Assembly: GCA_030704615.1 (NCBI GenBank) | Contig: CM060734.1 | Coordinates: 39,990,001-40,054,000 of the forward strand | DNA: 64,000 bases | Direction: 5' to 3' | DNA from: Takakia lepidozioides | Taxonomy: Eukaryota > Plantae > Bryophyta | In this document: positions 35,288-40,127 of the stretch, in pieces | Layout: every line of letters begins with the position of its first letter | Position numbering within the stretch: position 1 is the first letter of the stretch | Position numbers and translations under genes: made by a program | Notes under the pieces: model-generated | Database searches by the model: none | Seen by the model: only the letters and a program-made list of their open reading frames with translations | Told to the model about the DNA's origin: nothing

Positions 35288-35597
35288 AGTCGCCTTTACA
35301 GCTGCAGTTAGTTGGCCTGGAGAGTTGCTGGAAGGCAATGCCCATGCAGAGGATGTGCCACCTCCAGCAGAGCAGGATGACATGCATGGTGTGGCAGAGT
35401 TGCCTGCCATGGTTGCTCACACTCCATTGTGGGGTACGAGCAAGGATTTGCAGCAGGTTGCTGATCGACGGGTGCAACAAGCGTAGGTAGAGGCTTTTGT
35501 ACCGTCAGGAGAGGAGGAGAGTGCGGGTATTGCACCAGGACCACCTCAGTTGTCACCATTGGATACCACACCTATTGTGTGGCAGTATCCGGATGAA

Positions 35598-36560
35598 GGC
35601 ATTTGCCTTCTGGACTTGTTTGGCGGGATCAGCACCGGATTGGCTGCTGTGCTACAGGCAGGTTTGCGGGTAAGGCGTTACCTATATGTGGAGAGAGATG
35701 AGACTGCACGACGCGTCTCACTGCGCCATGTTGCTTAGTTGGTACAGCAGTACCCTGCTTTGTTGCCAGTGTCTGCAGTTCGTGGATACCAACAAGCCTT
35801 GCCAGCAGACATTTCGTTGCTGGGGGCGCCGGATTTGGAGCAGGTTGGCTCCATTGATCTGGTAGTGACAGGTTGGCCCTGCCAAGGGCATTCATCACCC
35901 GGGCATGGCAATGGATTGCGAGACTCGAGGACGGGTCTGTTTTGGGAGATGGTGCGGATTTTGCGCCACTTGCAGCTTCATCAAGCTGTATCGCCAGCAT
36001 ACATCTTGGAGAATGTGCCACTGATGGGCGATTCTCGGGCCAGGGTGATGACCAGTGTGCACGGTCGTGGCTTGGGTCAGCAGTGCTGCTGGATGCAGCT
36101 GCAGTGGGATCACGAGCTCATCGTCCACGGCTATGGTGGACTAACTTGATGCCACCCACACTGCTCAAGCGTGCATTTGATGGGGTGCAGCGGCCAACAC
36201 ACCTCATAGTGGACAGCATTTTGGACACAGGGAGGCAGTCTCAACGTGTGAGACACGATGACCGTTCGCCTTTGGCAGTGGTCAACAGGGTGGGTCAACC
36301 ACGAGCAGCATTACCTACACTGCTCAGCTTCCCAGGATCCCATGCTTTTCGGGATGGTGGACCTGGCCTCCTGTGGGATGCTCAGTTGCAACAGATAGTG
36401 GAGCCTAATGCCGACGAGCGAGAGCGGGCTATGGGGTTTTCCACTGGGACCACGGCGGTGCCTTCTCTTTCTGAGGCATCTCGTCGTCAGGGGTTGGGGC
36501 AAGCAATGGATCTCAATTGCTTGACCTGGATTATCAGCTTGGCTATGGCTGAGCAACGTA
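35598..36560 (+). pseudogene. C5-cytosine DNA methyltransferase domain (DNMT3/DRM-like motif style) within pol
   Basis: Motif I LLDLFGGIS, II YVERD, IV GWPCQ (catalytic Cys at 35880), VI ILENV, VIII AHRPRLWWTN, IX ERERAMGF, X RRQGLGQAM. Stop at 35736-35738 and frameshift near 36060. Confidence 0.92.
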
Positions 36561-37054
36561 GAGTGCGGAGTGCACTTCCCTTGACGGTCTCTCTGCCTAT
36601 CGAGACGATACAGGCAGCGAGTGGGGGCGAGCCGGTAAGGACCACGGGGTGTAGACATCCATGGCACATGTGGGAGGTGCTCGAGGTCCAGAGGGAGTTG
36701 GCAGCCAAGGCAGCTGTGATGGATGAGGTTGGGGATTCTTCTCGGGTTGAGGAGGTTCTCATGATGAGATGATGGGGCAGGATGAGGCCTTGTCATTGAC
36801 TGAGCAGGAAGGGAGTACTGCTCAAGAGGTTGCAGCATAGCAACCACGGGACGCGTCCTCTACCTCTAAGCCCATTGGACTTAAGGTTGCAGTTACAGAG
36901 GACAATTGGGAGCCTGACATTGGACCCATTGTCACCGGAGGAGAGAGACGACGTATGCGGCGGTTCCTGAGGGCTTACAGGAATTGCTTTGCCTTCAGTT
37001 TGAAGGACTTGGGAGCACTGAAGGGTCAAGAGATTTGCATTGAATTGTCTGTAA

Positions 37055-39554
37055 TTGCCAATCTTTCGGAGACCCTATAGATACAGTGACATGGAGAGGT
37101 CCTTGATTCAGATGAGAACTCAGGATCTTTGGGAGGCAGGTTTGGTGGAGCTCTTTGGTGGAGAGTATGCTTTAGCCACAATGATGCCAGCTAAGAAGGA
37201 TGTCTATGGCAATTGGACGGAGAGACGTATGTGCGGTGATTACCGGCCTATAAATCGTAAGACCAAGTCCGATAGGTATGCCATGCCGACACCAGAGGAG
37301 ATCTTTGATGCCATTGGGCATTCCAAGGTCTTTAGCACGTTGGATTTACGATCCGGATATCACCAGTTGCCGATCAAGGAGGCGGATAAGCAAAAGACGA
37401 CATTCTGGGGGATCAATGAGCACGGGAAGGATTGCCTATACCAGTGGCGGTTCTTACCATTTGGGCTTAAAAACGCTCCTGCTGAGTTTCAAAGGGTCAT
37501 GGACAGGATTCTAGCAGGGGTGGAGTTTGCTCGGTGCTACATAGATGACATCATCATCTTTAGTGTTACGGTGGAGGAGCATGAGAGACACCTTTAGGGG
37601 GTATTTGAGCGCTTGAGGACGCACGGATTGAAGTTATATCCGGGAAAGTGCAAGTTTTTCCACAACCAAATTGAGTATCTGGGTCACATGACGGTTTACA
37701 GACGGTTTGTTAAGGGATTTAGTGCCATTGCAAAGGCTCTAACCAAGCTGACCAAGGTGGACCAGGAGTGGCAGTGGGAAGATGAGCAAGAACAAGCTTT
37801 TCAAGAGCTCAAGGCGAGGTTGACCTCGGCGCCCATCTTGAGACGACCTATTAGGGGGCGTCCTTTTCAGCTGCATACAGATTGGAGCATGCTGGGGCTT
37901 GGAGCGGTGCTCACACAGGTGGATGATGAGGGAAGAGAGTTCGTAGAGGCTTACACTAGTCGCTCGAACAATGCTGCTGAGTCTAAGTATAGCTCATATG
38001 AGGGAGAATGCTTAGCTGCAGTGTGGGCCGTGGCACACTTCAGGTGTTATCTATACGGCAATCTCTTCACCCTTGTCACGGATCACCAACCACTCAAGTG
38101 GTTGATGGAGTCAGACAAGCTTACGGGGAAGCTTGCACGGTGGGCACTCATCCTTCAAGAGTATGACTTTCAGGTGGTGCATCGACCGGGTTTGGTCAAT
38201 CGCAATGCAGATGGGTTGAGTCGCAATCCATGCACGAGCCAGCAGGATGACACTGGAGCTCGGTGGCATGGTGAGACAGACGAGGAGATGGTGCCCGGAT
38301 GGCATGCATCTGCATTTCTGTGTATCTTGGCAGCGGAAGGCCAGGTTGGACCTGCAACAGGGATGACTGTAGATCAAGTGTCTGAGGACCTCGAGGCCAG
38401 CAATGAGCAAGGTGGCGCCAAAGATATACATGAGGATTCAGTTGTGTTGGACTACCTCCGCACTGGAGACACTGCAGCCACTGTGATTGCCAATGAGAGG
38501 GATCGGATCCTACAACGAGCTAAGAGGTTCAAGTGGGAGGGGACACACCTGCTCCGAGTATGGGAGGATGGTCGAGTGAGGATTGTGCCTCACCCAACAC
38601 AGCGGGCACGGTTAGTGCGGCATGCCCATGAAGAGTTGGGCATTTTGGGGTGCGACGCACTCATAGTCTACTGCAGGGCAGTATTGGTGGCGTGGTATGC
38701 ACACAGAGGTGCAACAATTTGTGGCTAGGTGCATGGTGTGTGACAGGGTGCGTGCTTCAGTCAACGCCCCTACTCCACAATTGCACCTTCTTCCGATCAT
38801 GGGATTGGGCTACAGGTGGAGTCTTGACTTCGCAGGGCTGTTGCCACTGACCATGCGCCACAACAAGTACGTGTTGGTGATGGTGGAGCACTTCTCCAAG
38901 TGGATTGAATTGGTTCCATTGCCTGATAAGGCTAGTGAGGGAGTTGCGTATGCATTCTTGGATTGTGTGCTTAGCCGATTCGGTGCTCCAGCTGAGGTAC
39001 TCACGGACCAAGGGAGAGAGTTCTTAGGGGAGTTTCAGGCTTTGTGTGACAAGGCCTTGATAGACCACCGCACCACTTCTCGGGATCATCTTGAGGCCGA
39101 TGGCTTGGCCGAGAGAGTTGTTCAGACAGTAAAGAGGGGTTTGCGCAAGTATGGCTTGCAGAAGGGACACCTAGGAGATTGGGACCTTCAGTTACCCTGG
39201 TTAGCCATGGGCTACATGTTCAGCAAGCAAGTATCACTTGCCTCCTTCTCACCATACTTTCTTTTCTTTGGCCGAGAGCCGGATTTGCCTACATCCATTC
39301 GCAGAGAAGCTGCTACAGTTCTTAACCTTGACGATCCGGATGTGTGGGCATGTGCATGTGAGCAGCGTGCAAAGTTGTTCAAGAAAGTCATGCCAATGGC
39401 TTTTGAGAACCTTGCCATTGCACAACACCGTGATACGTTGATGTATGCTACCATACGTGGTCGGGGCTATCGTCCTGGGGTTCGGAGATTCAACCCTGGT
39501 GACTACGTCTATCTGCAGCAGACTGCTCCTACGACCTTGGATGTGACTGCATGA
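37055..39554 (+). pseudogene. RT, RNase H and DDE integrase of the MTase-bearing element
   Basis: [84 protein letters not shown]. Internal deletion after IEYLGHM; stops at 37595 and 39552. Confidence 0.92.
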
Positions 39555-39722
39555 CGTGTTATTTTGAGGGTTCGAGAGGTCTTGCCCTCATGCGTCTTGG
39601 TCTTGGAGGGTCGGGATGGCATAACTTGGAAGGACCATGTGCGTAATTGTGTGCCATGTCACCTTCCGAATGTCGATGGCAGGATAGACCCAAACTTGGC
39701 AGTGGTATCTGCAGGTTTGAGG

Positions 39723-39857
39723 TGCATGTTGTGTGGGTCTGCTAGAGGGGCAACCACCATGCTGGTGTGTGATCGATGCTCTAGAGGTTGGCATATGGGA
39801 TGCTTGACTCCACCTCTTGAGATGGTTCCGGATGGGGATTGGTTATGTCCACATTGC
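39723..39857 (+). other. PHD finger at the C-terminus of the integrase
   Basis: CMLC..MLVCDRCSRGWHMGCLTPPL..VPDGDWLCPHC is a C4HC3 pattern, in frame with the integrase ORF across one TGA. Confidence 0.92.
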
Positions 39858-40127
39858 ATTGGATAGTGGGGGTGGATACAACCATGGAAGGCTAACAAGA
39901 AACGCAAGGCCCAGCTACTAGGAGACCTTGAACACACGAGGTCCTGGCTCAAGTTCACAGATTACAGAGACGGCGACTAACGATGGGGCTACTCTTGTAC
40001 CCGGCCTCTTGGTCTATAGGGTTTGAGTGCAATAGGGACAGTGATAGAGGACTTAGTACGGCTGTGGCTATTACATCTTGTAGCTATCTGGAGGTAGAGG
40101 GACCTACCCACCAGCTAGGGGGGCGAT

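Follow-up and report, generated by a model that had tools for sequence, protein, structure and literature searches.

What would a moss retrotransposon do with a DNA methyltransferase of its own, and in what amounts would it make the enzyme relative to its reverse transcriptase? The question is raised by a locus within a 64-kb stretch of the Takakia lepidozioides genome, referred to here as the window, in which the initial annotation had recognised a C5 DNA methyltransferase (MTase), a reverse transcriptase (RT), an integrase and a PHD finger in a single pol polyprotein. The order of the domains on one strand is borne out by Pfam matches, which run 5' to 3' along the plus strand as DNA_methylase (35739-36068, E 5e-12), RVT_1 (3e-21), RT_RNaseH (2e-34), Integrase_H2C2 (4e-6), rve (4e-14) and PHD (1.7e-11). 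The C5-MTase motifs start in linear order at 35619 (FGG), 35688 (VERD), 35871 (GWPCQ), 36009 (ENV), 36122 (RPR), 36416 (ERERAMGF) and 36494 (LGQA), followed by the YIDD of the RT at 37538, the integrase D-D-E motifs at 38823, 39003 and 39105, and a C4HC3 finger from 39723. The element, a Ty3/gypsy retrotransposon, belongs to the KnitGypsy-Dnmt3 lineage; the copy here is broken, and the element is highly repeated, which is all that the summed contig depth serves to say, as it does not equal copy number. Chromovirus membership was rejected because the integrase ends in a PHD finger (PF00628), as had been read from the sequence at the outset, and not in a chromodomain; the RT is 37% identical to that of a neighbouring chromodomain-bearing element.

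The copy is dead, as first described. Its 5' edge, at 35288, was severed by the LTR (34565-35287, minus strand) of an unrelated gypsy element with a gag at 33344-34138 and a partial second LTR copy at 22678-23311. The chromodomain present in the window belongs to a different, plus-strand element and not to this interrupting one. No match to the gag or protease of the methyltransferase element was found anywhere in the 64 kb, and the missing 5' half turned up neither leftward of the second LTR copy nor elsewhere in the window. What remains, all on the plus strand, begins with a truncated protease-MTase spacer (35288-35567, with one private stop), the translation of which resembles by eye those of the relatives P0010 and P0003. 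It is followed by the DNMT3-like MTase (35568-36565; PF00145), with one private stop, one frame change and 72-75% identity to Marchantia P0010, and by the C-terminal tail of the gag-protease-MTase (gag-PR-MTase) frame (36566-36837). Beyond a conserved in-frame stop (36838-36846) lie a pre-RT linker and the RT (36847-37597), with a private frame change and stop, then the RT thumb and RNase H (37598-38230), with an in-frame deletion near 37691. The integrase (38560-39554, the start being approximate) has its H2C2 finger broken by frame changes and its DDE core motifs present, and its C-terminus (39555-39866) carries the PHD finger (39723-39857) at its end. In total, decay has left in-frame stops at 35484, 35736, 37595 and 39552, the first and last of which differ in nearly all contigs compared, and frame changes near 36062, 36760 (private to this copy), 37052 and 38640-38675. 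The limits of 35288-39866 originally given to the element are incomplete, since it runs on to 40650 with split repeats, and contig depth is single-copy beyond that point. A neighbouring host gene is 69-81% identical to its ten best matches, 54-58% to the closest matches from named angiosperms and 47% to a fern sequence, as would be likely for a bryophyte host.

The MTase appears to be a fixture of the family and not a passenger of one copy. Searches gave 104 relatives and 80 loci, most of them with the MTase at the same place, the loci having been found via the MTase, so that copies lacking it fall outside the count. They occur in Marchantia, Calypogeia, Riccia and Sphagnum, and in Marchantia many copies have long intact gag-PR-MTase frames. 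The trees of MTase and RT are congruent. A quick MTase tree places the window lineage and Klebsormidium together in a 13-row set with an SH-aLRT of 98 (midpoint root, no bootstrap), and the RT tree, with one distant outgroup, gives Klebsormidium no firm place. A one-off capture of a host DNMT3 or DRM gene by a dead element, which the initial annotation had considered, can practically be dismissed: the number of relatives and the constant position speak against it, as do the congruent trees (in which plant host DNMT3/DRM sequences were left out), the purifying selection described below, the lack of introns and an identity of 43% between the MTases of Marchantia and the Klebsormidium element, as against about 21% between the model of the relative L038 and DNMT3A. 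No point in its favour was found. Among viral contigs there were no relatives, the 79 pattern matches all being unrelated.

The lineage has already been published as KnitGypsy-Dnmt3, or "Gypsy-DNMT3 of streptophytes", of which the window element is a variant. The suggestion of a layout new to land plants therefore stands in part: the element does occur in land plants, and its lineage was known. As described in the text of de Mendoza et al. 2018 (PMC5890265), KnitGypsy-Dnmt3 of Klebsormidium nitens has its DNMT within one ORF together with the RT and shares with the present elements a Gypsy-type protease-RT-RNase H-integrase order with a DDE integrase (the protease being found here only in relatives), an intronless, non-permuted Dnmt3 upstream of the RT (KFL_009030040, our P0165, reads PR-MT-RT-RH-IN), purifying selection on the MTase, and DIRS-like split repeats, seen as B-A-B in the window and as the whole A-coding-B-A-B in five loci. 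The two differ in that the DNMT-RT ORF is uninterrupted in KnitGypsy-Dnmt3 (PMC5890265), while the land-plant elements keep the same frame with a conserved stop in it. The portion consulted of that paper's text makes no mention of a PHD finger, readthrough, a self-priming site, target duplications or a short A-internal-B form. Chlorophyte-type relatives such as Cymbomonas CYMTET_9141 (P0172) have an MTase of the same family and a PHD-tipped integrase, but are arranged as RT-RH-MTase-IN-PHD, with the MTase between RNase H and integrase, and form a separate clade in both the MTase and RT trees. The REXdb paper gave no match for PHD, methyltransferase or Marchantia. A literature search returned no paper on the family in bryophytes, on its readthrough or on its ends, and subscription papers and the main supplement of PMC5890265 may bear on this novelty. 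According to a 2019 opinion paper (PMC6338049), land plants "such as tracheophytes" lack methylase-encoding transposons; later papers give only "streptophytes" for such elements.

The single polyprotein is not supported in view of the stop at 36838, which divides gag-PR-MTase from RT-RNase H-integrase-PHD. The stop is present in 58 of the 61 copies readable at the MTase/RT junction (42 TAG, 16 TAA). Six branches of the RT tree retain it, with synonymous sites saturated or nearly so between them; the 61 copies are for the most part closely related, which leaves about six independent cases. No other stop occurs in 2400 codons of L062 or in 1704 codons of L066, and among the 1192 contigs of run X1 the junction stop shows no variant at a frequency of at least 2%, while adjoining bases vary. 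Furthermore, 37 of the 52 proteins with protease and MTase terminate 54-181 residues past the MTase, without an RT. The apparent continuity of the MTase C-terminal ORF with the RT, taken earlier as a shared frame, is an accident of the window copy: the MTase-RT linker lies in frame 1 and carries the conserved stop, and the MTase C-terminal part and the RT are both in frame 2 only because two frame changes private to this copy offset each other.

The sequence following the stop is of a kind known from readthrough in plants, for which the consensus is given as stop-CARYYA (TMV, eRF1-1; PMC5397192, consulted in part). CARYY stands directly after the junction stop in 55 of 58 cases, and after premature stops elsewhere in only 11 of 884. 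CAR at +4 to +6 is kept in every branch; the strict CARYYA is present in 5 of 58. The window copy has TAG-CAACCA, and the largest sampled family has CAACCC, lacking the last consensus base. As the stop is conserved and its context is that of known plant readthrough, it is highly probable that RT-RNase H-integrase-PHD is produced by occasional ribosomal readthrough, the gag-PR-MTase frame ending at the stop and being extended now and then. No strong RNA structure was found 3' of the stop (z -0.1 to -1.6, from crude mononucleotide shuffles). The arrangement is like that of stop-separated gag-pol elements such as Tca2 (PMC2194720), with an in-frame stop and an open frame downstream, and like the TMV signal (PMC5397192), where an in-frame stop precedes CAR-YY(A); as far as the portions consulted of these two sources go, it differs from both in that the stop follows the protease and an accessory enzyme instead of coming directly after gag. 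The stop is not required across the lineage as a whole, since MTase and RT are joined without it in Klebsormidium P0165 and in P0096, P0152 and P0183.

Alternatively, the stop could be a true terminator, with a spliced or sub-genomic RNA, or else re-initiation, as the source of pol, in which case the MTase would still be produced at Gag level. Automated gene models from Marchantia and Sphagnum (P0018, P0079 and P0007) join MTase and RT by omitting the linker, but these are predictions only, and an ATG following the hexamer in the largest family (L002) is missing in the window, L038, L062, L065 and L066. True termination is also hard to reconcile with a frame that is strictly continuous across the stop in 47 of the 61 copies, the others being decayed, and with the CAR retained in every branch, and we regard it as improbable.

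The initial annotation also proposed that the PHD finger steers the MTase to chromatin according to H3K4 state. Its nearest solved domains are CHD4, KDM5B/5A PHD1, ATXR5, PHF21A (BHC80-type), BAZ2, UHRF1 and AIRE, of which we take the KDM5 PHD1, CHD4, PHF21A, BAZ2, UHRF1 and AIRE domains to be readers of the unmodified H3 tail. PHD fingers that read H3K4me3 have an aromatic cage with a Trp two positions ahead of the zinc-binding His; in all five copies shown the His is preceded as RGWH, which does not place a Trp there. The finger of the window copy has few acidic residues. By its sequence it thus resembles the readers of unmodified H3 and not those of H3K4me3, and given its nearest neighbours it would at most read the unmodified H3 tail on behalf of the integrase; docking of the integrase on chromatin by this route is an evenly balanced proposition. 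With the stop in between, MTase and PHD would be joined in one chain only in the readthrough product, the rarer one, where the protease probably separates them. A PHD-guided MTase from one polyprotein would agree with the retention of both domains across the whole clade, with basal members lacking the stop between them and with a readthrough product bearing both. Nevertheless, it has little probability in view of the stop conserved in the subclade of the window copy, the protease upstream in intact relatives and a PHD finger that stays at the end of the integrase also in those elements whose MTase sits between RNase H and integrase.

With regard to the enzyme itself, the linear motif order, unlike the circular permutation of plant DRM, and the absence of introns agree with the first description. 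The MTase of an intact relative matches DNMT3A at E 1e-11 and DRM-type chains at 4e-5 or more weakly, and a DRM identity was rejected on these two grounds. An AlphaFold model of an intact relative (pLDDT 90) had Foldseek matches that, among those listed, were all DNMT3A/B/C; the MTase is DNMT3-like, with a predicted DNMT3 fold in that relative. In a pair without saturation the dN/dS of the MTase comes to 0.142, and four other pairs between lineages give 0.08-0.16; most pairs of window copy and relative yield no ratio because synonymous sites are saturated. Neutrality, named at the outset as the outcome expected of a chance insertion, is thus not what was found: between lineages the MTase is under purifying selection, at values below the Ka/Ks of 0.2 used as the threshold for the KnitGypsy-Dnmt3 lineage. 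Among dead sister copies the ratio is 0.40-0.91.

Since the stop after the MTase would be read through only now and then, the MTase would be made, and likely packaged, at capsid-like amounts, and this predicted abundance points to a role inside the particle. There the enzyme may methylate the element's own cDNA, although the chances that it is catalytically active and does so appear about equal either way. Taken together, an element of the KnitGypsy-Dnmt3 lineage with a leaky stop after gag-PR-MTase, a packaged MTase and methylated cDNA is a reasonably probable explanation of the locus. A less likely but substantial alternative has the MTase serving the particle as a structural part or by binding DNA or RNA, or else methylating host or competitor DNA. 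The catalytic PC and ENV motifs retained in the window copy and most relatives speak for catalysis on cDNA (of 144 representatives, many of which are partial, 110 have a motif IV-like and 107 a motif VI-like sequence), as does the de novo CG methylation by a Symbiodinium retrotransposon Dnmt3 reported in the text of PMC5890265. Conversely, according to the same text the Klebsormidium enzyme gave no methylation in yeast, a result its authors call inconclusive, and the MTase has about three times the dN/dS of the RT. The CpG ratio of the element (0.56) is that of the window average (0.54), and this lack of excess CpG loss gives no sign of self-methylation.

The 3' end of the window copy is laid out as PPT-B-GC-A-B. 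A G-rich PPT-like tract (40108-40125), also found before B1 in relatives, lies directly 5' of repeat B1 (40126-40210, 3' end CGACA, 95% identical to B2). A 2-bp spacer (40211-40212) follows in the palindromic junction GACA-GC-TGTC, a proposed internal attachment site. Repeat A2 (40213-40563) starts with TGTCA, its 5' copy A1 being lost here and A beginning the element in relatives, and B2 (40564-40650) forms the true 3' end. Among the loci of relatives, five with both ends read A-internal-B-NN-A-B and five A-internal-B, and the B-A spacer is exactly 2 bp in all 12 junctions seen. Target duplications of 4 bp are perfect in six of nine distinct insertions and have one mismatch in the other three; these, like the priming site, were read from relatives, the 5' end of the window copy being lost. 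In 11 of 19 copies the 14 nt that follow A1 are complementary to positions 165-180 of A; a TATA box, seen in 10 of 19, lies about 25-30 nt above that site. No clear match was found in the other eight, nor in L062, L066 and L038, whose 5' repeats were not located. ARAGORN found no tRNA gene in four loci, which has no bearing on priming.

The 4-bp duplications, the repeat-free short form and the self-priming site suggest that the split repeats derive from a normal LTR (B-NN-A) which integrase has opened at a CA-NN-TG inside it. Reverse transcription is likely to be self-primed on this ordinary LTR unit. We also lean, somewhat less firmly, towards integration ends that arise when integrase cuts the CA-NN-TG palindrome of circular cDNA, a one-LTR circle giving A-internal-B and a two-LTR circle A-internal-B-NN-A-B; recombination between B1 and B2 could be another source of the short forms. 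Cleavage of palindromic LTR junctions by integrase is described for foamy virus in the portion consulted of PMC1180852. As far as the part consulted of PMC6317226 goes, self-priming gypsy elements of the Tcn1/Tf1 type likewise have no tRNA-type primer site and, following the 5' repeat, a stretch complementary to where the transcript presumably starts, but they are chromoviruses with ordinary LTRs, as distinct from a lineage with a PHD finger and permuted ends.

More tentatively, an old and abundant bryophyte clade might, by way of the leaky stop, package a functional de novo MTase at capsid stoichiometry, pre-methylate its cDNA and integrate only after integrase has opened circles at the LTR palindrome, a full scenario that we hold to be rather doubtful. 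If it were true, LTR circles would be an obligatory integration substrate; the split ends in any case predict an unusual integration route. Marchantia, a genetic model plant, has copies of the family, and there the question of the role of transposon DNMTs posed in 2018 becomes testable. Copies with split or no terminal repeats could be missed by LTR finders, which would explain how LTR-based surveys might overlook the clade.

The Dnmt3 cargo and the A-coding-B-A-B layout are shared with SymbioDIRS-Dnmt3 and split-repeat DIRS of the PAT/Ngaro type. DIRS elements, however, integrate by a tyrosine recombinase and without target duplication, and assignment to that order was rejected in view of the rve domain, a DDE integrase, together with TG..CA ends and 4-bp target duplications.

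The element at 35288..40650 carries on its plus strand, in this order, DNA_methylase, RVT_1, RNase H, integrase zinc finger, rve and PHD domains, as recovered by a Pfam search of the window, and it keeps all seven methyltransferase (MTase) motifs listed in the initial annotation together with YIDD and the integrase D-D-E motifs. The domain order proposed there therefore holds, as does the view that the copy is dead, given its four private stops, several frame changes and one in-frame deletion. The presumed 5' loss at an LTR was also confirmed: the LTR of a different gypsy element truncates the copy at 35288, and no gag or protease of the MTase element was found anywhere in the 64-kb window. 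Contigs of sequencing run X1 are stacked over the whole element (63,652), and the depth falls to single copy right past 40650, which marks the family as highly repeated in the organism of that run. Comparison of one host gene places the source of the window among non-flowering land plants, probably bryophytes.

The claim that the MTase belongs to a single pol polyprotein was not supported as stated when relatives were compared. Among 80 loci and the window, 61 copies, most of the set being close kin, retained the end of the MTase as well as the pre-RT linker, and an in-frame stop parts MTase from RT in 58 of them; two have a tyrosine codon and one is unreadable. The two tyrosine loci, L031 and L039, are probably a single insertion. 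The plant readthrough consensus is given as stop-CARYYA in PMC5397192. CARYY follows the stop in 55/58 copies and random premature stops in 11/884; the strict CARYYA occurs in 5, among them the window (TAG-CAACCA, 36838-46), and the hexamer of the largest sampled family ends in C. In locus L062 the stretch that runs from gag through PHD, 2400 codons, has the conserved stop as its sole one; the same holds across 1704 codons in L066, and the stop is accompanied by one further stop in L038. Across 1192 run X1 contigs, variation of 2% or more touches none of the bases of TAG-CAACCA; the nearby positions 36834, 36835 and 36848 do vary, and at 35484 and 39552 nearly every contig differs from the stop of this copy. 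In proteins with protease and MTase, 37/52 terminate soon past the MTase and 9 extend into RT; these nine include four gene models of Marchantia or Sphagnum and one Klebsormidium protein. The stop is present in every row with DNA (seven loci and the window) of a supported 10-row RT clade, and basal family members are without it. No RNA structure supporting readthrough was found at the stop. Judging from sequence, the main product would be gag-PR-MTase, with RT-RH-IN-PHD made via readthrough.

A query with the MTase C-terminal part returned 104 relatives, with Marchantia polymorpha, Calypogeia fissa, Riccia sorocarpa and Sphagnum among those named; Klebsormidium KFL_009030040 and Cymbomonas came from a further search with a profile. 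At E < 1e-30, 506 clusters (50% identity) match, some of which may be DNMT3-type proteins of other kinds. Intact relatives have the layout gag-zinc knuckle-protease-MTase, and the MTase of one is nearest to DNMT3A both by sequence (E 1e-11, with DRM-type chains at 4e-5 or weaker) and by predicted fold (pLDDT 90). Several Marchantia copies (P0319-P0321, P0324) are annotated as V (male) chromosome genes.

RT and MTase trees, built separately as the initial annotation had proposed, are concordant and give two groups according to MTase position: before RT, with the window and Marchantia, and after RNase H, with Cymbomonas. The MTase has shifted position within the family. Klebsormidium falls in the first group in a quick MTase tree, and its place in the RT tree was not resolved. 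The clade with the MTase between RNase H and integrase is the larger sister (P0075, P0085, P0087, P0153-P0172 and many of P0175-P0318), with Cymbomonas as its sole named member; the full RT-RH-MT-IN-PHD order was read in 31/144 new representatives. MTase dN/dS, also suggested at the outset, is 0.08-0.16 across five lineage pairs, about three times the RT value, and 0.40-0.91 between dead sister copies.

The kind of element has been known since 2018: PMC5890265 describes KnitGypsy-Dnmt3 as carrying a Dnmt3 in Pol and DIRS-like repeats, with Ka/Ks below 0.2, and the family agrees with that account in MTase, repeats and low dN/dS. Recent papers use the name 'Gypsy-DNMT3' of streptophytes, and a 2019 paper states that land plants such as tracheophytes lack elements of this sort (PMC6338049). 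No earlier paper on the bryophyte copies, the conserved stop or the ends was found in the literature open to search, which comprised neither subscription papers nor the 2018 main supplement and figures.

The PHD domain, a C4HC3 finger, shows purifying selection between lineages (dN/dS 0.04-0.16), is nearest to those of CHD4, KDM5 PHD1, ATXR5 and PHF21A, and has no counterpart of the Trp characteristic of H3K4me3-reading fingers. Since it always sits on the integrase tail, whatever the MTase position, its most likely role is to steer integration, in the manner of a chromodomain, and not to steer the MTase.

The element runs on to 40650 through a PPT-like tract and the split terminal repeats B1 (40126..40210), a GC spacer (40211..40212), A2 (40213..40563) and B2 (40564..40650). 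Loci with both ends comprise five long forms (A-internal-PPT-B-NN-A-B, NN being a 2-bp spacer) and five short forms (A-internal-B); both begin TG (TA in one copy) and finish CA, with 4-bp target duplications that are perfect in 6/9 distinct insertions. In 12/12 junctions, 2 bp separate B from A. In 11/19 copies the stretch that follows A can pair with a site within A, 25-30 nt below a TATA box, as in self-priming elements. With the PPT before B and the primer site after A, the unit that they bound, B-NN-A, is an ordinary LTR, and the arrangement of the ends suggests that the CA-NN-TG palindrome within this LTR served for integration. Staggered cutting of such a palindrome leaves ends resembling processed retroviral ends. 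Opened there, circles with one LTR would yield the short form and circles with two LTRs the long form, although short forms could also arise through B1-B2 recombination. Foamy virus integrase cleaves palindromic LTR junctions of this sort, according to PMC1180852. At the A2-B2 joint, flush or nearly flush in 7 other long-form loci, locus L068 has 19 extra bases (10838-10856) ending in PPT-like CG, which may be a scar left by end joining when a two-LTR circle formed.

A likely life cycle would start with transcription in A; abundant gag-PR-MTase and a rare full-length product would co-assemble, the protease would release the domains, RT would self-prime, the MTase would methylate the cDNA, and the integrase would open the internal palindrome and insert the DNA with the PHD as guide. 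The predicted MTase activity is the weakest link of this scheme: CpG counts of the element are uninformative on it, and the Klebsormidium domain is described in PMC5890265 as inactive in yeast, inconclusively.

A second terminus, PPT-B-2 bp-A-B, lies on the minus strand at 56572-57350, 68-78% like the main one, with another copy of A's end directly before it, no coding region, and long inverted repeats on its flanks (56100-56569 and 57950-58416); no 5' end could be placed for it, and it is probably a miniature non-autonomous relative. Elsewhere, a nested set at 22678-35287 consists of a minus-strand gypsy element, with one LTR at 34565-35287 and a partial one at 22678-23311, that is interrupted twice, by a plus-strand chromodomain-bearing gypsy element (29617-33207) and by a unit bounded by 300-bp repeats with a PPR fragment (23391-27826). 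A LINE-type element, broken but retaining a piece of its RT, occupies 60239-63073 (minus). Host genes are found at 254-1387 (minus), a GH5 glycoside hydrolase, and at 47687-50404 (plus), a molybdenum-cofactor-sulfurase-like gene in several exons.
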